Origin: Bacillota bacterium
Lineage (GTDB): Bacteria > Bacillota > Sulfobacillia > Fermentithermobacillales > Fermentithermobacillaceae
Assembly (NCBI GenBank): GCA_050952065.1
Contig: JBMNKF010000007.1
Span: 76,412-140,411, forward strand
DNA length: 64,000 nucleotides
Direction: 5' to 3'
The notes under the pieces are model-generated. The model was not told the DNA's origin. It worked only from the letters and a program-made list of their open reading frames with translations, and searched no databases. Positions 1,428 to 33,270 of the stretch are shown here, piece by piece (within the stretch, counting starts at the first letter, position 1; each line of letters starts with the position of its first letter). The position numbers were made by a program, and so were the translations under genes.

Positions 1428-1501
1428 ACAATATTACCAGATAGTCCCCAATGCTATAATCAACTTGAACTGGAAAACCCTTTGACCGGAGGAAGACCGC
1501 C

Positions 1502-2512
1502 TTGACGAGAGTCTTTGATGCTGGGAAACTCCCTCTTGATACGTTAAAACAAGTGGTGTTTAGGAGAGGCGGATCCAAAAGGCCCGAGGTGCTCGTCTAC
1601 CCATCTATAGGTGAAGACACCTCGGTAGTTGATGTTGGCTCGGAACTCTTAGTCATAAGCACCGACCCCATTACCGGAGCACAAGAAAACGCAGGTTGGC
1701 TGGGGGTGAAAGTGGCCCTGAACGATATTGGCGCTTCAGGTGCAGAGCCAATCTGCATTATGGTGACACTTCTGCTTCCGGAGGGAACGATCCATGACGA
1801 TTTCTCGGCCATTATCGACGATATCCACCGCGCATGTGTGGAAGAAAACGTGGCTATCGCAGGCGGACACAGCGAGGTCACTCCGGGTTTGTCAAAACCC
1901 ATCATCAGCGTAACCGCTGTAGGGAAGACTGTAGGAAGAAAGGTGTTGCGGGCCAGCGGTGCTAGACCCGGCGACGACATAGTGATGACCAAGTGGGCGG
2001 GCATGGAAGGCACAGCCATCCTGGCCAAGGACTTTCGAGGCGTCCTTCAAGAGAGAATTGACCTGGAACTGTTGGACCAGGCGGAGAAGCTTATGGCCTG
2101 GGTGAGCGTGACCAAAGATGGACGCATTGCTCTTCTGAATGGGGCTACAGGCTCGCACGATGCCACCGAAGGAGGCGTTCTGGGAGCCATTTACGAAGTG
2201 TGCGAAGCTTCGGGAACAGGTGCGCGGGTTGACGTCCAAGCCATCCCGGTACTCCGATGTACCCAGGAGATCTCTAGAATTGCGGGAATAGACCCGTTGA
2301 GGTTGGTTGCGTCGGGTTGTCTTGTGATAACAGCGCCAGACGGACCGAGTCTTTGCGAAGCGTATAGACAAAACGGTATCAACGCACAGGTGGTGGGCAA
2401 GATTACGTCAGGGGACAGATGCCTCGTGGTATCTGGAGAATTGTTTCCCCTGGAGTCTCCCAAGTCCGATGAGCTGTGGCGAGCAAGGCAGTTTTTCGAG
2501 GGAATGCGATAA
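1502..2512 (+). CDS. AIR synthase-related protein (PurM/HypE/SelD/ThiL superfamily), function unknown
   Basis: 336 aa. N-terminal PurM-like fold motifs (GEDTSVVD, STDPITGA, ALNDIGASGAEP) and C-terminal AIRS_C-like half. TTG start 6 nt downstream of GGAGGAAG. Confidence 0.6.
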   Translation: MTRVFDAGKLPLDTLKQVVFRRGGSKRPEVLVYPSIGEDTSVVDVGSELLVISTDPITGAQENAGWLGVKVALNDIGASGAEPICIMVTLLLPEGTIHDDFSAIIDDIHRACVEENVAIAGGHSEVTPGLSKPIISVTAVGKTVGRKVLRASGARPGDDIVMTKWAGMEGTAILAKDFRGVLQERIDLELLDQAEKLMAWVSVTKDGRIALLNGATGSHDATEGGVLGAIYEVCEASGTGARVDVQAIPVLRCTQEISRIAGIDPLRLVASGCLVITAPDGPSLCEAYRQNGINAQVVGKITSGDRCLVVSGELFPLESPKSDELWRARQFFEGMR

Positions 2513-2539: not shown

Positions 2540-3400
2540 ATGTGGGTTACTTGGACACTGGTAGTCTTGGCGGTTCTCCTGTGGTTTGGAGTCTCCTGGC
2601 TGTCGGCGCTTGTTGAAAAATACTCCCACAGTCTCGAATCGATCTCGGTATTGGCTATCCTAGGCGTGGCTTCCCTATGGTTCGGGAGGCAAGCTGTTGG
2701 GAAACTCGCCCCTGAGTGGACGATGGGCCCTACCCTTGGAGCGTCTTTAGTGATAGGACTTGTGGTGTTTTCCCTTCTTTCGTATGTGGTGGTCAACCTA
2801 TGGCTGGCTCTTCTGACTAAGGAATACGACCAGCGTATTGCCTCTTTGGAGGAAGAAGAGGACTCTATACTGCGGACTCTTGAGTCCATGCGATGGCAGT
2901 CGCTGAGGGCAGGTGCGTCAGAAGGTCCGATGATAAAGGAGACCCCGAAGGTTTCTCCCAAACAGAACGAAGCCGACGTCCTCGCCGACTTTGTGGCCCG
3001 ATGGGAGCAAGAAGGAGGGGCCGCTCGTATTCGGTCTTTGAAAGTATTGGAGTGGAAGGATGAGGTTTCTGCCAAGTCAGAAGATGATCTGCGGCAGTTC
3101 ATCAGCCAATTGCGCCAGGTAACCGAGACGGAGACTGACGACATTAGGAAAGAGCAAGCGAGAGTAAGGCTGGCTCTTGCAGAACTTGAGGCGTTATCCA
3201 GGACTCCCGCCAGGCGGGATTCCGAGGAATCGTGGGTGTCAAAGGACGTCAGGGACCAGAGCCCCGCACCTATAGACCTAGATCAGTCAGCCTTGAGACA
3301 GCGCCTCCAAGAGATTAATCGGTGCATCAATGTCGCCAGATCCGAAAAAGCTCTCTTTCTTAGACACAAGGTCTCCTTAAGATGGGGGAGAAGGCAATGA
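2540..3400 (+). CDS. Hypothetical membrane protein: 3 predicted TM helices plus long acidic coiled-coil region
   Basis: 286 aa. Hydrophobic N-terminus (WTLVVLAVLLWFGVSWLSALV..., ILGVASLWF, LVIGLVVFSLLSYVVVNLWLALL), then E/R/K-rich heptad-like sequence. AAGAGGTG RBS before ATG 2540. Its stop overlaps the next gene start (ATGA at 3397-3400). Confidence 0.5.
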   Translation: MWVTWTLVVLAVLLWFGVSWLSALVEKYSHSLESISVLAILGVASLWFGRQAVGKLAPEWTMGPTLGASLVIGLVVFSLLSYVVVNLWLALLTKEYDQRIASLEEEEDSILRTLESMRWQSLRAGASEGPMIKETPKVSPKQNEADVLADFVARWEQEGGAARIRSLKVLEWKDEVSAKSEDDLRQFISQLRQVTETETDDIRKEQARVRLALAELEALSRTPARRDSEESWVSKDVRDQSPAPIDLDQSALRQRLQEINRCINVARSEKALFLRHKVSLRWGRRQ

Positions 3401-3837
3401 GCCACATGAGTTCATACAAGGCGGACATAAGACTTCAAAGTGCTCTCGAAGAGGGAAGGCCCGTGGAAGAAGACCCGGGGTGGGAGATTCTTGAAGAGGC
3501 GGTGATGACAGCCGCCCAGGAGATGAATCTCGACGTCAGCCACACCATACACGACTACTATGGCCGGGGAATCTTCTGTGATTGGGCTATGACCGGACCG
3601 GAAATCCCAAGAGGGCTGGGAGTCAGTGTGGACCGGAAGACCGGAGAAGTCACTTTCGTGTGCGACACATATGGAGGGTACGAGAGGATTGCGGGTGAGA
3701 TCAAGGACAGGGTCATCCAAAACTACTCGGCCCTGTGTGTGACCAAGGCTCTGTCGGCACTGAACTACACAGTCGACGTGGATGAAGTACAGCATCCTGT
3801 TCACGGCAAGAAGGTTATGGTTAGAGGAGTGCTGTGA
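3397..3837 (+). CDS. DUF1257 (Ycf35-like) family protein
   Basis: About 146 aa from ATG 3397 (MSHMSSYKADIRLQSALEEG...). The MSH-S-IKT-I-D type N-terminus and size match my recollection of the DUF1257/Ycf35 family. ATGA overlap with upstream gene. The ORF-track start at 3382 is also possible. Confidence 0.55.
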   Translation: MSHMSSYKADIRLQSALEEGRPVEEDPGWEILEEAVMTAAQEMNLDVSHTIHDYYGRGIFCDWAMTGPEIPRGLGVSVDRKTGEVTFVCDTYGGYERIAGEIKDRVIQNYSALCVTKALSALNYTVDVDEVQHPVHGKKVMVRGVL

Positions 3838-4064
3838 TGACCAGAAGAATTGACGTGGAGGTATCCCGGGGTGGCAGAGTGAAAATGGAGTTCTCAGGCT
3901 TTCCCGGGGAAGAGTGCTTTGCCGAAGCGGAGGTCCTGCAAAATGCCCTTAGGGAACTGGGTCTTTGGGCTTTGCCCGTGACGATCACTCCCAAGACAAC
4001 AAGGGAGATCGAGTCCGAATTGCCCAGAAAGACTGCGGAAAAGCAGAAGGTGCCCGTATCATGA
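3834..4064 (+). CDS. DUF2997-like small protein (copy 1)
   Basis: 76 aa (MMTRRIDVEVSRGGRVKMEFSGFPGEECFAEAEVLQNALRELGL...). Pattern I-x-V-x(4)-G-x-V-x(3)-G-F-x-G-x-x-C-x(n)-LExxLG is typical of the ~60-70 aa DUF2997 family. GTGATGA start/stop overlap with DUF1257 gene. Confidence 0.5.
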   Translation: MMTRRIDVEVSRGGRVKMEFSGFPGEECFAEAEVLQNALRELGLWALPVTITPKTTREIESELPRKTAEKQKVPVS

Positions 4065-4243
4065 CGGCCAATGGAAACGAAGCGAATTCCCAAGTTGCCA
4101 AGTCCTATTTCGAACTGGAGATCAGAGGGGATATCATAAACGTCTACGAAAGAATGGGAGACGGCGCTACATGCCTGCTGGCTAAAGCCCTAGAAAGGCT
4201 GGGGCTCAGACTGAGAGTCCGCGTGAGTTCTCCCTGCGGTTAG
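4061..4243 (+). CDS. Second DUF2997-like mini-protein (copy 2), 60 aa
   Basis: ATG 4061 overlaps the stop of the previous gene (ATGA). Sequence MTANGNEANSQVAKSYFELEIRGDIINVYERMGDGATCLLAKALERLGLRL repeats the same E-x-E/I-x-G-x(n)-G-x-G-x-x-C-x(4)-LExLG pattern. It is embedded in the longer ORF-track entry 3965..4243. Confidence 0.4.
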   Translation: MTANGNEANSQVAKSYFELEIRGDIINVYERMGDGATCLLAKALERLGLRLRVRVSSPCG

Positions 4244-4269: not shown

Positions 4270-5976
4270 TTGATGAGGTTTCTTGACGAATCCTGGATAC
4301 AGTCTGGTATTCTCAAGCGAAGGGCGAACTACTCGCCTATTCTGTGTTTCGAGACCGTGGATCCCAAGAGGATATATCAACTGAAGTCGTTCTTGCTGTC
4401 TTCGCCTGAATTTTCCCAGACGGAGCACTTCTTCCTGTACGACCCTTGGGAAGGTCTCGGCACGCTTCGAAAAGGTGTGGACGGTCCCCTCTTTGAGCCA
4501 TACCGAAAAAGGTCTTTAAGGGATACTCCCCTGACTTCTAGAATACGCCCGGAGGGCGGCATAGAGTTTGGTGCCTTGAAGAGTGTCTTGAAAGAGGTTG
4601 ACCCGTTCCTTAAGACTTCTCAGACTGTGTTCCTCCTCCAGAACGTTTCTGACGTGAGAGAAGCCGACACGGGGTTTCAGGCCGCTATGAGGGCGTGGGC
4701 TATCGATCCCAACATCTTGTCCAGAGGTTCCACCGTGATAATCTTGACCTCAGATGCCTCTCGCATCATGGACGATTTTACAAAGGAGTATGTTGTTGTC
4801 ATTGCCATTGACCCATCCACCAGCCAGGAGCGCGAGAGCCTTATCATGTCTGTCGGGAGAGAGTTGGGGGTAAGTCTTGACGAGTCCCGCTTGGAAAGCG
4901 CCGCGGTGGCTCTGTCGGGGCTCAACCTCCATCAAGTAGAGAGCATCCTACTCGAATCGTACCAGCGCGTCAAAGATTTCGAACCTGACATTATGAAAGA
5001 GCTCAAGTCAGAATTGGTGAAGCGGTCCGGAGTGCTGGAGGTTAGGGATCCGCAGTTCAGCTTCAAGGATATTGGCGGTTATCACGCCATCAAGGATTTC
5101 GTCTCGAAGTACATCATAAACGTCCTCAAAAGACCTGAAAAGGCCAGGCGTTTTGGCCTTGGCTTGCCCAAGGGCCTCTTGTTCTTCGGTCCCCCCGGGA
5201 CAGGGAAGAGCTTGTTTTCCAACGCTTTGGCAAGCGAAGTCCAGCTCCCGTTCATAAACCTGGTCACAGAAAACATCTATTCCAAGTGGTTGGGGGAGTC
5301 GGGCCAGAACATGAAAAACGCCATAATCATGGCGGAAAAGATGTCCCCGGCTATCGTTTTTGTTGACGAAATTGACAGATTCGGCAAAAGGACCGGCAGT
5401 TCTGCCGGTTCAGCTGAAGAAGAAACCCAGCGCGTGTTCTCGCAGTTCCTGGAGTGGTTGGGGCGACCAGACAGGGAAGCCATCATTGTTGGAACGACTA
5501 ATGTGCCAGAGCACCTCGATGAAGCTTTTCTCAGAGCGGGAAGATTCGACTACAAGATCCCCTTTCTATACCCGGGGCCTGAAGCGCGTCTGGAGATACT
5601 TCTTGTGCACCTTGGACTGTCGCCCGGTGGCAGGAGACCTCCGGTGCCTCTGGACATGAAGCCCGAAGATGTGCGCGGGTTCCTGATGGAGGCAGTTGTG
5701 CCCCTCACCAAGAATTTCTCTTGCGCGGAACTGGAAGAGCTGGTGACTAGGGCCAAGAGGATAAGTTTCGACAAAGACAGAGAGCATGTATCTGGTGATG
5801 ATCTAGTAACGGCCGCGACAACTTTTCGGATTGACTATTCGGCCCGCAGGCGAACGGTTGAGACTTGCATGATCCAGGCAAGACACTTTACCGATGATCA
5901 AACGTTCCTTGATGCTATTGAAGAAGAGAACAAAGTGTATGAGAATGGTGCTACATCTTCTAGAAATGAGGGATGA
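4270..5976 (+). CDS. Classical AAA-family ATPase (single AAA domain, CDC48/Vps4/FtsH-like clade) with unique ~270 aa N-terminal domain
   Basis: 568 aa. Walker A GPPGTGKS, Walker B VFVDEIDR, SRH region TTNVPEHLDEAFLRAGRFDYKIPF. TTG/ATG start after GGGAGG. Confidence 0.85.
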   Translation: MMRFLDESWIQSGILKRRANYSPILCFETVDPKRIYQLKSFLLSSPEFSQTEHFFLYDPWEGLGTLRKGVDGPLFEPYRKRSLRDTPLTSRIRPEGGIEFGALKSVLKEVDPFLKTSQTVFLLQNVSDVREADTGFQAAMRAWAIDPNILSRGSTVIILTSDASRIMDDFTKEYVVVIAIDPSTSQERESLIMSVGRELGVSLDESRLESAAVALSGLNLHQVESILLESYQRVKDFEPDIMKELKSELVKRSGVLEVRDPQFSFKDIGGYHAIKDFVSKYIINVLKRPEKARRFGLGLPKGLLFFGPPGTGKSLFSNALASEVQLPFINLVTENIYSKWLGESGQNMKNAIIMAEKMSPAIVFVDEIDRFGKRTGSSAGSAEEETQRVFSQFLEWLGRPDREAIIVGTTNVPEHLDEAFLRAGRFDYKIPFLYPGPEARLEILLVHLGLSPGGRRPPVPLDMKPEDVRGFLMEAVVPLTKNFSCAELEELVTRAKRISFDKDREHVSGDDLVTAATTFRIDYSARRRTVETCMIQARHFTDDQTFLDAIEEENKVYENGATSSRNEG

Positions 5977-5979
5977 GGC

Positions 5980-6210
5980 GTGAAGGCTAAGATAGAAGCT
6001 GCGCTCAACCAGATTCGCCCGTCATTACAGGCGGACGGCGGAGACGTCGAACTCGTTGATGTTTCCCAAGATGGCGTAGTCAAGGTCAAGCTTACCGGGG
6101 CTTGTGGAACCTGTCCCTTTGCTACAATGACTCTGAAAGCCGGGATCGAGAGAATCTTGAAAAAGGAGATCCCGGAAGTCAAAGAAGTCGTGGCGGTAGA
6201 TCCTACATAA
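5980..6210 (+). CDS. NifU-like (Nfu-type) Fe-S cluster domain protein
   Basis: 76 aa with GACGTCPFATMTLKAGIERIL containing the CxxC motif of the NifU C-terminal/Nfu domain. GTG start only 3 nt after the AAA ATPase stop, preceded by GAGGGATGAGG. Confidence 0.7.
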   Translation: MKAKIEAALNQIRPSLQADGGDVELVDVSQDGVVKVKLTGACGTCPFATMTLKAGIERILKKEIPEVKEVVAVDPT

Positions 6211-6552
6211 GAAAACCGTCAATCGTAGCGTAGGTTCAGGCACCGGGGTGTCCTGAACAGGGAATTCAATAGGGCCTTCGAGGAGGCTCGTCTTCGGTGG
6301 ATGAGCCTTCTACATTGATCCCTCGCTTTGATCCTTCGCATACAATTTGCTTGCGTCTAGTGTTCCGATGGCTGCCCGATTGCGGAAATGCATGTCCTGA
6401 TCCGGTTAGCTACAAAGCCGCCCTTCACACCCGAGTAGAGCCTGGCATATAGATGTTCTAGCCAAACGGCATTCTTTGTCTTCAACGAAAGGAGGGTAAT
6501 TGCTCTGGATACCCTCGAAGTCAAACGCGAAGAACTGCGGCTAGAAGAAGTA

Positions 6553-8097
6553 GTGGGGGAAGGGACTTCACAAGTAATCGTCAGTGAAGCCGTAACGGTG
6601 CCTGAGGAAAAACCCCCGGTTAGGGCGGTCATTGACTTTGTGGCGAGGACTAGGATAGACAAAGTCACGGTGTTGCCCGGCAAGGTGATTGTGGACGGTA
6701 CGGTGGACTTCGCCATCATCTACGAAGCTACTGTGGAGACTCAGACGGTTCACGTGTTTCATGCGGAGGTCAAGTTCAGTACGTTTGTGGAGATCCCAGG
6801 TGTCGAGCCTGGTATGACTGCGACCCCCACGCTTGCCATTGAGCACGCGGTCTTCCAGGTTAGCCCGGATGGAAGAACAATCACCATCCGAGCGGTCGCG
6901 GCCCTCTCGGTAAGAGTGACTCAGTCGGTGGTTATCGACGTCATAACGGACGTTTCGGGCCTGCCCGGACTCCAGGTCACCAAAGAGGTTGTGAAGGCTG
7001 AAACAGTGCTGGGTGAGGGAGAAGCCCAATACGTGGTACGGGAGAACTTGCAGATTCCCGACGCTAAGCCTGACGCGGCGCGAGTGATAGACTTCGTGTC
7101 GACCATACAGGTGAACTCCACCACAGTTCTGCCCAACAAGATAATAATCAACGGCACCATCAGCCTAAGGGTCATCTACGAAGCGGCCGTGCCCAGCCAG
7201 TCGGTTCACGTGGCTCACTTCACCATCCCCTTCGAAGCGTTTGTGGAAGTCCCGGGAGCGCAGCCGGGGATGGCGGTAATCGCGGCGGCTCAGGTTGAGT
7301 TCATCTCTATCGATGTGAATGCTACTGGTCGAGTGCTTCAGGTGAGGATCATTCTTAAGGTTACGGCAAAGGTCATCCGAGTCCAGAAGGTCCAGGTTGT
7401 GACCAACGTAGCCGGTATAGCAGATTTGGTGCTCTGGAAGGAGCTAATCAGGGTCCAAGAGGTCTTGGGTGAAAACAAATCTCAGGGGATCGTTCGAGAG
7501 ATTGTGGACGTTCCTGACGAGAAGCCATCTGTGGCTATGGTGATTGATTCCAGTTCTTCTCCGGAGGTCAAGAGAGTTATCGTGGCCCCAGGGAAAGTCA
7601 TCGTTGATGGCGCCATAGCTCAGAGGATCATCTATGAACCGCTGGATTGCCCGATGCAACAAGTGCATACGCTGCACTTTACGGTTCCTTTCTCCGAGTT
7701 TGTGGTGTTGCCAGAGGCTAAACCCGGCATGGTTGCCAGAGTGGATGTTCAGGTGGAACACGCCAATTTTGAGGTACCGCCTTCGGGAGATCCCGTTATG
7801 GCCACCAAAATCATCCAGCTCGTAGCAAGAGTGTTTAAGACCAGGGTCATCAATGTAGTGGTCAAGATTCAATTAGGCAAACCGAAACCCACCTGTACCG
7901 GTACAGTCACCGGGAACCTGGTTAACGTCAGGCAAGGTCCCGGAACCACCTATGCAGTTGTTGCCCAAGTCAATGCTGGTACGGTGGTCGCGGTACTGGA
8001 GTTCTCGCCCGATTGGGTTAAGGTAAGACTACCCAACGGAGTGGTGGGATGGATTTCCTCCGCATACTTGCGGCATGACTGCAAGCCGTTGGGGTAG
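6553..8097 (+). CDS. Secreted/spore-associated repeat protein: three ~125 aa DUF3794/SipL-like repeats plus C-terminal bacterial SH3 domain
   Basis: Internal repeats (VLGEG-x-Q-x-VV-x-E-x-V-PD-KP...V-x-VLP-KVI-x-G-x-IYEA...VH...F...F-x-FVE-PGA-PGM) recur three times. C-terminus GTVTGNLVNVRQGPGTTYAVVAQVNAGTVVAVLE...WVKVRLPNGVVGWISSAYL is SH3b-like. The true start is probably upstream of 6553 (see findings). Confidence 0.7.
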   Translation: MGEGTSQVIVSEAVTVPEEKPPVRAVIDFVARTRIDKVTVLPGKVIVDGTVDFAIIYEATVETQTVHVFHAEVKFSTFVEIPGVEPGMTATPTLAIEHAVFQVSPDGRTITIRAVAALSVRVTQSVVIDVITDVSGLPGLQVTKEVVKAETVLGEGEAQYVVRENLQIPDAKPDAARVIDFVSTIQVNSTTVLPNKIIINGTISLRVIYEAAVPSQSVHVAHFTIPFEAFVEVPGAQPGMAVIAAAQVEFISIDVNATGRVLQVRIILKVTAKVIRVQKVQVVTNVAGIADLVLWKELIRVQEVLGENKSQGIVREIVDVPDEKPSVAMVIDSSSSPEVKRVIVAPGKVIVDGAIAQRIIYEPLDCPMQQVHTLHFTVPFSEFVVLPEAKPGMVARVDVQVEHANFEVPPSGDPVMATKIIQLVARVFKTRVINVVVKIQLGKPKPTCTGTVTGNLVNVRQGPGTTYAVVAQVNAGTVVAVLEFSPDWVKVRLPNGVVGWISSAYLRHDCKPLG

Positions 8098-14823: not shown

Positions 14824-14898
14824 GGGCGAATAGCTCAGCGGGAGAGCACCTGCCTTACACGCAGGGGGTCACAGGTTCAAACCCTGTTTCGCCCACCA
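14824..14898 (+). tRNA. tRNA-Val (anticodon TAC)
   Basis: Cloverleaf by eye: acceptor GGGCGAA/TTCGCCC, anticodon loop CTTACAC, T-loop GGTTCAAACC, encoded CCA. Confidence 0.85.
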
Positions 14899-14908
14899 TA
14901 GAGAACGC

Positions 14909-14986
14909 GGAGGCGTGGTGTAGCTGGCCTAACATACGTGCCTGTCACGCACGAGACCGTGGGTTCGAATCCCATCGCCTCCGCCA
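14909..14986 (+). tRNA. tRNA-Asp (anticodon GTC)
   Basis: Acceptor GGAGGCG/CGCCTCC, anticodon loop CTGTCAC, GGTTCGAATCC T-arm, CCA encoded. Closely parallels the canonical bacterial tRNA-Asp sequence. Confidence 0.85.
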
Positions 14987-15022
14987 CCTTAAGTTAGACA
15001 GTCTCGGTTCAGACGAGGTCTT

Positions 15023-15098
<76 letters not shown>

Positions 15099-15104
15099 TG
15101 GCTA

Positions 15105-15179
15105 GCGGAAGTGGCTCAGTGGTAGAGCATCGCCTTGCCAAGGCGAGGGCCGCGGGTTCGAATCCCGTCTTCCGCTCCA
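15105..15179 (+). tRNA. tRNA-Gly (anticodon GCC)
   Basis: GCGGAAGTGGCTCAGTGGTAGAGC, anticodon loop TTGCCAA, GGTTCGAATCC, CCA encoded. Confidence 0.85.
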
Positions 15180-15190
15180 TTTGTCATCAT

Positions 15191-15264
15191 GGCGAGATAG
15201 CCAAGCGGTAAGGCAGGGGTCTGCAAAACCCTCATCCCCGGTTCGAGTCCGGGTCTCGCCTCCA
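15191..15264 (+). tRNA. tRNA-Cys (anticodon GCA)
   Basis: GGCGAGATAGCCAAGCGGTAAGGC, anticodon loop CTGCAAA, GGTTCGAGTCC, CCA encoded. Confidence 0.85.
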
Positions 15265-15271
15265 AGGGCGT

Positions 15272-15348
<77 letters not shown>

Positions 15349-31177: not shown

Positions 31178-32761
31178 CTACTTCGGAAGCGATGCTTGAA
31201 TTCCGGCTTCTTGGAGCAATTCCACCGCTTTGGCCGGATCGTAGGGGTAAGGCTCCAGGTTTTCGCTATAGCCAAAACCGCTGGGTATCAAGGCTGTTGA
31301 TACTCTCTCGCCATACCCTCCGTAGATCGATGAGAGGATAGAATCCCAGTCGATAGCGTAGTTCAGGGCTTTTCTCACTCGCACGTCGTCAAAAGGAGGT
31401 TTTGTATTGCAGATTTCTATAGCGTAGACTCTCGTGCCGGGTACTGAATCCACTGTTACATTCTGGTCGCTTTTCAGGACCTCGGCGATATCGGGAGGCA
31501 GTTTGTCTATTATGTGTACTTCGCCGGCCTTCAAGGCCGCTACCCTTGTGGCAGGGTCCGGCATCAGGCGGAAAATCGCGGTCTTGATGGCAGCGGGGCC
31601 CACAGGAGGAAGGTCGGGCGACCCACCGTAGTAGTCATCGAATCGCTCCAGGACTACTTGGTCATCCAGCCTACCTTCTTTGAACTTGAAAGGTCCTGTT
31701 CCAATGGGTTTCTCGGCGAATACCTCATCGCCTACTTCTTCCACATAGGCCTTTGGGACAATTTGAAAGTGACACAGTGCCTGTAAGAACACGGGGAATG
31801 GGTTTTCTAGGACAAATTCTACGGTGCTTTCATCCACTTTTCGAACTTCCTTTAGGGGTCCCAAAAGCCCTTGACGCGGCGAGGTATTGCCGCCTATACC
31901 GTTTTCCTTTAGGACGCGGTCAAAGGTGAAGACCACATCGTCTGCGGTTAGGACTTCTCCGTTATGGAACTTTACTCCGTCACGAATCTTAAAAACGTAG
32001 GTTGTCGGGTCAGGGATCTCCCACGACTCGGCGATTTCCGCCACCACTTCTCCCTCATGGGTGCGGGTTACCAAAGCGTCAAATATGTTCCGGATCAGTG
32101 TTTCGGTATCTCTGTCTCTGTAGTTACCAGGATCTAGAGTGATAAACTTGTCCGTGCCCATTCCCACGGTTATGGTGTCACCGTCATCGAGGGTTACGTC
32201 GTGCAGGTTGATCCGGGAGTCCATAGCGACCTTCCAGTTGCCCACGCTCTTGGATGCCGCTCCGGTTTCTTGGAGGCAGTAACCGAAAACCCAGGGCGCG
32301 TCCTCATACAGAATATCCTGGACCCGGCGGTACAGATTCCTGCGGGACTCCTCGTCGGTGGTGGTTGTCACCTGATCCAAAAGGCTGTCAAGCTCGCTGT
32401 TGGAGTAGTGGGAGTAGTTGCCCCTATCGCCCGTCTTAAGTTTGGGAATCACCAGGTCGAAGGGGTCGAAATATGAGCTTCCCCAATCGGTCATATACAG
32501 TTGGCGGTTTCCTTCCATGAACTCGGCCTTCAGTGCGCTCCATTCCCAAGTTCGGGCTTCCGCCTGTATGCCGATTTTGCGCAAATCAGCGGCAACTGCC
32601 TCAGCTTCGTCCTTTCGGTTGGCTTCGCAGTCGATGACCACTGACAAGGTCTGAAGCTCCGGAGCAGGTTCGTCTTTGCATCCTGCCAGAGACAAGACTA
32701 GAAGCGATACCAAAAACGCGGCCAAGACGGCAAACCCACGGCTCCTCCTAGACATAAACAC
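31178..32761 (-). CDS. oppA: ABC transporter substrate-binding lipoprotein, family 5 (OppA/DppA/NikA-like)
   Basis: Signal peptide plus lipobox (LSLAGC), SBP_bac_5-like core. AGGAGG RBS on the minus strand before ATG 32761. Confidence 0.85.
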   Translation of the reverse strand: MFMSRRSRGFAVLAAFLVSLLVLSLAGCKDEPAPELQTLSVVIDCEANRKDEAEAVAADLRKIGIQAEARTWEWSALKAEFMEGNRQLYMTDWGSSYFDPFDLVIPKLKTGDRGNYSHYSNSELDSLLDQVTTTTDEESRRNLYRRVQDILYEDAPWVFGYCLQETGAASKSVGNWKVAMDSRINLHDVTLDDGDTITVGMGTDKFITLDPGNYRDRDTETLIRNIFDALVTRTHEGEVVAEIAESWEIPDPTTYVFKIRDGVKFHNGEVLTADDVVFTFDRVLKENGIGGNTSPRQGLLGPLKEVRKVDESTVEFVLENPFPVFLQALCHFQIVPKAYVEEVGDEVFAEKPIGTGPFKFKEGRLDDQVVLERFDDYYGGSPDLPPVGPAAIKTAIFRLMPDPATRVAALKAGEVHIIDKLPPDIAEVLKSDQNVTVDSVPGTRVYAIEICNTKPPFDDVRVRKALNYAIDWDSILSSIYGGYGERVSTALIPSGFGYSENLEPYPYDPAKAVELLQEAGIQASLPK

Positions 32762-33270
32762 GCCTCCTATTATTGTTGTGGTCGGTCGAAGAGTCGGTTT
32801 TCGAATGAAACGTGCCTATGACCCTGTACCGCAGGATCGCGGCAGGGTATAGAGAAAAAGCGATACAGGGTTCTTCGAGACAACCGGAATGACAGGGGTG
32901 AAACGCAGAGTCTACTCCGGAGCACTTGCTTACCGGGCATTTACCTCCGCTTCTTTATGCTCTTGCGCGCGCTTATCGGCAAGGGCCCCCATCAACGCTT
33001 GCGAGGTTAGCTGACGGGCTCGGGCCGATGAAGTAGCCCTACCCTGGGAAGGATTAGCCCCAAAGAATGGGTCCCCCGCTCCTCATTTGAGGATTCAGCG
33101 CAAAACGGAACTCCGGGTGCCGACGGCTTGTTGAAAACCGTGTAAACTCGACCAAATAAATCCTATCATTTGTGTCAAGCCGGAGTCAAGGAAATGTGCC
33201 GACCACAGAGGGAACGGAGGAGTGGATGCCGCTTAGGTGATAGGATATTAGTGTTCAGGAGGGGATCCGC

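Follow-up and report, generated by a model that had tools for sequence, protein, structure and literature searches.

Why should a gene for an Fe-S cluster carrier sit directly behind the gene for an AAA+ ATPase, and does its presence there reveal the nature of the ATPase's client? This question is raised by an nfu gene in the window, the whole stretch of 64,000 nucleotides analysed here. An earlier note on this DNA had read the arrangement as a dedicated coupling of Nfu to the AAA operon, pointing to an Fe-S or metal-containing client. The operon consists of seven same-strand, tightly packed genes, which are as follows.

1502..2512 (+), gene of the AIRS superfamily (PF00586, PF02769), 27-nt gap to the TMcc gene
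2540..3400 (+), TMcc, a membrane and coiled-coil protein with HMM matches in 71 of 78 loci; ATGA overlap with the p151 gene
3397..3837 (+), p151, a remote member of the DUF1257 superfamily; GTGA overlap with the p76 gene
3834..4064 (+), p76, DUF2997-type, with an invariant Cys28; ATGA overlap with the p60 gene
4061..4243 (+), p60, 60 aa, with HMM matches in 70 of 78 loci; 26-nt gap to the AAA gene
4270..5976 (+), AAA+ ATPase, 568 aa (PF00004, E 1.3e-30); 3-nt gap to nfu
5980..6210 (+), nfu, the final gene

No Pfam or NCBIfam family matched TMcc, and p60 was likewise without a family match. The p60 ORF is easy to miss, lying between the DUF2997 and AAA genes. Orthologs of p151 are 146 aa long, and the true start of this gene is probably the ATG at 3397, which would give a product of 146 aa here too. 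The ATPase combines a family-specific N-domain of ~255 aa with a classical AAA core, in which Walker A (5188–5211), an aromatic pore loop (KWLGESG, 5284–5304), Walker B (5356–5376), sensor 1 and arginine fingers were all recognised. This set of motifs makes the sequence compatible with a substrate-threading ATPase.

The nfu ORF opens with GTG and encodes a 76-aa product made up of a single Nfu domain (NifU C-terminal type), which matched the whole of Pfam NifU (PF01106, model 1–67/67) at 104.4 bits (cut-off 27, E 3.4e-30). The cluster-ligand motif of the domain, CxxC, is present as C42-G-T-C45 (nt 6103–6114, + strand); it is kept in 100% of 40 orthologs and aligns with the cluster-ligand cysteines (CGSC/CGTC) of the solved Nfu domains 2z51 and 1xhj. 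The nearest solved structures were Arabidopsis NFU2 (2z51, E 1.4e-24), Staphylococcus epidermidis NifU (1xhj) and human NFU1 (2m5o). The motif GACGTCPF given in the earlier note is found exactly as written, and the PF01106 match and junction sequence bear out its description of a stand-alone 76-aa Nfu gene with its own Shine-Dalgarno sequence, 3 nt past the AAA stop. Its heading, which had the gene fused to AAA at the 3′ end of the latter, was right as to the adjoining position but not as to a gene fusion, as there are two separate reading frames.

Two larger Nfu-containing proteins were considered and ruled out. The NfuA model (TIGR03341) scored 51.4 bits, far short of its 269-bit cut-off, matching via the common domain, and the 76-aa product is the Nfu domain alone, without the degenerate A-type N-domain of the E. 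coli type. The model for NifU proper (TIGR02000) likewise stayed far under its threshold (62.4 bits, cut-off 273) and matched over model positions 222–290 only; the IscU-like N-domain and central [2Fe-2S] domain are missing. Hence the window protein has the Nfu domain in common with E. coli and Azotobacter NfuA and with NifU proper but lacks their extra domains, whereas it resembles the single-domain carriers (Staphylococcus Nfu, 1xhj; Synechococcus NfuA; Helicobacter Nfu) as well as the first Nfu domain of plant chloroplast NFU2 (2z51), all of which consist of one NifU C-terminal domain of ~75 aa with CxxC. No sequence difference separates it from the single-domain carriers; what sets it apart is only its place at the end of an AAA operon, a lineage-specific trait.

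Homologs of the nfu product are abundant (>7985 at E<=1e-10), and it is 75–80% identical to the 73-aa Nfu of Omnitrophica, Spirochaetes, Syntrophorhabdales and Elusimicrobiota, no less than it shares with the Nfu of a member of its own family (Ca. Fermentithermobacillus), the two values being equal. Judged by these comparisons, the Nfu sequence here is generic and without specialisation. No second Nfu was found within the 64-kb window. Single-domain Nfu proteins are dimeric Fe-S cluster carriers (PMC8593673) and, by homology, the window protein would form a homodimer whose CxxC cysteines hold a [4Fe-4S] or [2Fe-2S] cluster as a bridge, for transfer to apo-proteins. Such a role would be general (housekeeping or stress-repair) rather than module-specific.

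At the junction itself, the AAA stop (TGA, 5974–5976) is followed by GGC and then by the nfu GTG at 5980, leaving a gap of 3 nt. The Shine-Dalgarno sequence of nfu (GAGGGA, 5968–5973, + strand) lies 6–7 nt before the start, within the last AAA codons, and the start GTGAAGG is invariant across seven aligned orthologous loci. A consensus scan of the + strand from 5015 to 5980 flagged no sigma-70-like promoter, and there is no terminator between the two genes because the gap is too small for one. The earlier note had named a separate promoter and terminator for nfu as evidence that would tell against its reading; in the window no such signal separates AAA from nfu, and for a terminator there is no room. 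The tight gap, without promoter or terminator signal, makes co-transcription of nfu and AAA likely, and in this lineage nfu is probably the final cistron of the AAA operon. Could nfu instead be expressed mainly from a promoter of its own inside the AAA 3′ end, so that the adjacency has no effect on expression? Promoter-like hexamers near the AAA 3′ end in two relatives (L019 and L026) would allow this, as would a clade described below in which nfu must have its own promoter. However, no consistent signal emerged when the junction was scanned for promoters and terminators in the window and in 14 relatives, a sigma-70-like site is absent from most relatives as it is from the window, and we regard an independently expressed gene as improbable.

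Downstream of nfu, two hairpins (6234–6258 and 6281–6311, + strand; RNA fold −44 kcal/mol, z −2.2), which lack a U-tract, possibly close the transcription unit. With these hairpins behind it, nfu probably stands last in the operon. The gap to the next gene is 343 nt, and Rfam found no RNA family in the operon region, including these 343 nt. At the other end, TGCTATAAT at 1452..1460 (+), before the AIRS gene, was read by eye as a candidate extended −10 element and may be part of the operon promoter; it was not among the sites flagged by the consensus scan. The gene that follows nfu (6553–8097, + strand), which is kept downstream in the clade, encodes a sporulation-type protein with three SipL/SPOCS repeats and, at its C-terminus, an SH3 domain. 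In several relatives nfu and this SipL/SPOCS-SH3 gene are separated by a convergent glycosyltransferase gene, which is missing from the window. Further along, a c-di-AMP riboswitch (RF00379, 100 bits) was detected at 32981–33110 on the minus strand, upstream of an ORF at 31178–32761 (−).

The junction was compared with that of relatives by DNA alignment. In two of these (L005 and L006) the AAA gene ends 24 nt before nfu, and a conserved, Shine-Dalgarno-bearing AGAAATGAGGGAT stretch is intergenic, whereas in the window and its nearest relative, L004, the AAA frame runs through this AGAAATGAGGGAT stretch (window 5940–5979 versus L005:2110–2134). The C-terminal tail of AAA in the latter two (...GATSSRNEG) corresponds to a read-through of the 24-nt spacer of L005 and L006, and it is this read-through of a former spacer that leaves a gap of 3 nt to nfu. 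On this alignment, the 3-nt spacing is a recent local change and not an ancient translational coupling.

To determine how far Nfu follows the other genes, one genome per species (GTDB) was scanned with an alignment of the family-specific AAA N-domain, yielding 75 loci, and HMMs of the window proteins were run against the six-frame ORFs of the loci (the set used for the TMcc and p60 counts comprised 78 loci). AAA was present in all 75 related loci. Where both flanks were available (n = 42), the genes for TMcc, the DUF1257-like p151 and the DUF2997-type p76 stood beside AAA every time, and Nfu was found within 3 kb of AAA in 28. Among all 75 loci, Nfu was directly downstream of AAA in 31 (gap −4 to 127 nt, with a Shine-Dalgarno sequence in every case) and 1.3–2.9 kb downstream in a further eight, beyond unrelated genes. 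These intervening genes encode an opposite-strand FBPase_3 (5 loci), a CLP1-type P-loop protein (CLP1_P), a Germane protein plus a flavoprotein, and a transporter-like protein. No Nfu was found in 18 loci whose downstream sequence extends for 3 kb or more, nor in a further seven where it covers 1–3 kb. The co-occurrence proposed as a check in the earlier note therefore gives a divided result: Nfu accompanies the module in 28 of 42 loci, but the 18 loci without it show that it is not conserved with the module everywhere.

In loci of the Symbiobacterium type the neighbours of the module are genes for methylmalonyl-CoA mutase and acyl-CoA dehydrogenase, and the 8-kb flanks contain neither Nfu nor an AIRS gene. 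The conserved unit is thus the five genes for TMcc, the DUF1257-like protein, the DUF2997 protein, p60 and AAA, which are found together at different chromosomal sites, and Nfu is a lineage-specific neighbour rather than a conserved component of this module. One locus (L034:6112-8004) has ~1.9 kb between p60 and AAA compared with ~30 nt elsewhere, which suggests an insertion splitting the module. In the fbp clade (clade B), AAA and fbp are convergent, and fbp and nfu are divergent, sharing an intergenic region of 135 nt. The intervening convergent fbp excludes a single transcription unit in clade B, and here nfu must have its own promoter.

The distribution of Nfu follows the phylogeny and surroundings of the loci. 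In a neighbour-joining tree of AAA proteins, the state with Nfu immediately downstream was essentially confined to one large clade, comprising the Fermentithermobacillaceae plus L037 and L041, and this clade also shares dnaE, an opposite-strand rsmD, the AIRS gene and SipL. Across the 42 loci, Nfu and rsmD were both present in 23, Nfu only in five, rsmD only in one and neither in 13 (Fisher p 4e-6), with rsmD orthology called at HMM E<1e-40. At a looser threshold (E<1e-3) the rsmD HMM also hit proteins of 438–453 aa in clade B; these are RumA-like methyltransferases, not RsmD, and the conclusion is the same at E<1e-40. As rsmD, an rRNA methyltransferase gene, stays beside the module roughly as often as Nfu does, although unrelated and divergently oriented, synteny would explain both. 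Clusters of 4–6 tRNA genes lead in the same direction. The window has six such genes at 14824–15345 (+), and similar clusters lie 1.6–5.9 kb past AAA in two distant clades, always in loci with Nfu and never in the Nfu-lacking ones. The second Nfu-bearing clade has another upstream flank and has only the module, Nfu and the downstream tRNA cluster in common with the window. The simplest reading is an old neighbourhood of module, nfu and tRNAs, decayed by insertions in some lineages, with the module lying elsewhere in others.

Overall, we consider it likely that the gene encodes an ordinary stand-alone Nfu carrier whose placement is a matter of lineage-specific gene order, outside the conserved module. 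Nfu occupies the last place of a seven-gene unit here and in family-level relatives (Fermentithermobacillaceae-like Bacillota). Among the points that speak against synteny as the whole explanation are that the likely co-expression of AAA and nfu could be adaptive, and that Nfu is still within 3 kb of AAA in the second, distant clade despite its different upstream flank.

The AIRS-superfamily gene at the front of the operon shows the same pattern, being found only in the clade that keeps rsmD beside the module; like Nfu, it is an accessory and clade-restricted gene. The earlier note had called it HypE-like and saw in it a further link to metallocentre maturation. HypE bears a carbamoyl or cyano group on a C-terminal cysteine. 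The product in the window ends in ...FFEGMR, without a cysteine, and none was present in the 12 ortholog C-termini inspected either. The HypE model (TIGR02124) scored 93.2 bits where 251.6 are required, all NCBIfam equivalogs fell under their cut-offs, and HypE, SelD and ThiL scores were about equal. With scores below cut-off and the C-terminal cysteine missing, an identity as HypE, SelD or ThiL was ruled out, and the gene appears to represent a distinct subfamily.

The family labels of the small proteins, as proposed in the earlier note, hold approximately. Although p76 itself scored 18.0 bits against DUF2997 (PF11211, cut-off 24.1), orthologs pass the cut-off, such as that of L068 at 26.3 bits. 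The connection of p151 to DUF1257/Ycf35 (PF06868) is only through profile-linked proteins: the window protein gave no match, its orthologs gave E 0.016–0.045, and a p151-ortholog profile run over 1.84 billion representatives found proteins, at E 1e-13 to 1e-16, which pass the DUF1257 cut-off at 23–30 bits. An AF2 model of p151 (pLDDT 87) returned nothing significant from a Foldseek search of the PDB (best E 0.05). In PADLOC the module matched no known anti-phage system, as AAA gave only generic similarity (IetA, TRIP13) and the other six operon proteins had no match; the small proteins were also without a match in PHROGs.

A homolog of the AAA gene was observed in a Dehalococcoidales MAG (L077:7878-12218), with 30% identity in the N-domain and without the small DUF proteins. 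It is followed by genes for a Multiubiquitin protein (PF14452), a Prok-E2_E protein (23.9 bits, just under the 25-bit cut-off) and a ThiF-type E1 (PF00899) with, by eye, a JAB-like N-terminal region. Judged by these domain matches, a ubiquitin-like conjugation set adjoins this AAA family in the MAG.

If Nfu served the module directly, it would have been recruited to load, or to repair, a metal centre (Fe-S or Cys-ligated) on p76, p60 or a client that the AAA protein unfolds. The tight same-strand adjacency in 31 loci, with a Shine-Dalgarno sequence and no terminator, is consistent with such an accessory, as is the persistence of the AAA-Nfu adjacency in the large clade while the downstream neighbour varies (SipL, a convergent glycosyltransferase, LPG synthase). 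The cysteines of the module proteins provide a further argument. Cys28 of p76 is conserved in 100% of 71 sequences, and C59 of p60, within a terminal SPCG, in 91% of 68 orthologs. These two single conserved cysteines may keep a functional link alive. C66 of p151 is also present in 91% of module orthologs, but in the wider DUF1257 family the position is variable (Cys in 49/128, Val in 41/128, i.e. a third), and Thermaerobacter (L055) likewise has Val in its place; a role of the p151 cysteine as Fe-S ligand was rejected on this account. Neither TMcc nor AAA orthologs have a strongly conserved cysteine, and no CxxC, multi-Cys or other Fe-S-type motif was found in any module protein.

A comparable neighbourhood is found in cyanobacteria, where DUF2997, DUF1257 (ycf35) and the ferredoxin gene fed7 form a cluster (PMC4284462). 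The window resembles this cluster and the operons with Ycf46-type AAA in combining DUF2997, a remote DUF1257 relative and an AAA protein of the classical clade, and in both the window and the fed7 cluster a gene for an Fe-S protein adjoins the DUF pair. By analogy, the cyanobacterial cluster would be a second link between DUF1257/DUF2997 and an Fe-S protein. The two differ, however, in that the neighbour in the window is a cluster carrier and not a ferredoxin, and that the module adds TMcc and the 60-aa SPCG protein.

Set against these points, at least 18 species have the core module but no Nfu beside it, and in those examined the module occupies another chromosomal site; the convergent fbp splits AAA and nfu in one clade; the Nfu sequence is unspecialised; the module proteins have no CxxC or multi-Cys motif; and co-variation with rsmD and the tRNAs accounts for the association without a shared function. 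We therefore think a dedicated accessory rather unlikely, and the earlier note's coupling to an Fe-S client stands up poorly against the co-occurrence, the generic Nfu sequence and the cysteine motifs. A more specific version, to which we give slightly less credence still, is that in Fermentithermobacillaceae-like Bacillota Nfu was recruited as a module accessory which would deliver or repair an inter-subunit Fe-S cluster on the cysteines of DUF2997 and the p60 SPCG, or would re-metallate a client extracted by AAA. If this were true, the recruitment of Nfu and the DUF2997-ycf35-fed7 cluster would together be the first functional handle on Ycf35/DUF2997 proteins.

The surroundings of Nfu in other phyla bear on its general role. 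Stand-alone Nfu genes of other phyla (L079:5001-5222, L083:5001-5222 and L089:7001-7222), whose products share 75–80% identity with the window protein, have no AAA nearby. Their neighbours encode ferritin, rubrerythrin, rubredoxin, desulfoferrodoxin and flavodiiron proteins, are Rrf2- or Fur-linked and, in the case of L083, also lie near IscS/IscU. This setting amid iron and oxidative-stress genes fits a carrier role in Fe-S maturation, including under oxidative stress. It also raises the possibility that the coupling is regulatory only, i.e. that the place of nfu in the operon is adaptive because Nfu is then made whenever the AAA module is induced (for example under oxidative or iron stress), with no physical interaction between Nfu and the module. 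Nfu-type carriers act in Fe-S protein maturation and are linked to oxidative stress (PMC8593673), and the cyanobacterial ycf46 AAA operon has been reported to be induced by severe oxidative stress (bioRxiv 10.1101/2025.07.21.665879), which by analogy may apply to the AAA operon here. However, no regulator gene or operator was identified within the window and many lineages are without the association, hence purely regulatory coupling is also unlikely, if the least so of these alternatives.

Our preferred reading of the locus is therefore of a standard Fe-S carrier gene, with its position behind AAA explained by lineage-specific gene order. For the family this means that an Nfu neighbour is poor ground for inferring an Fe-S client of DUF1257/DUF2997/AAA loci. 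As a by-product, the analysis cleanly delimits a conserved, uncharacterised module of five genes, to which Nfu and the AIRS-like enzyme are accessory neighbours.
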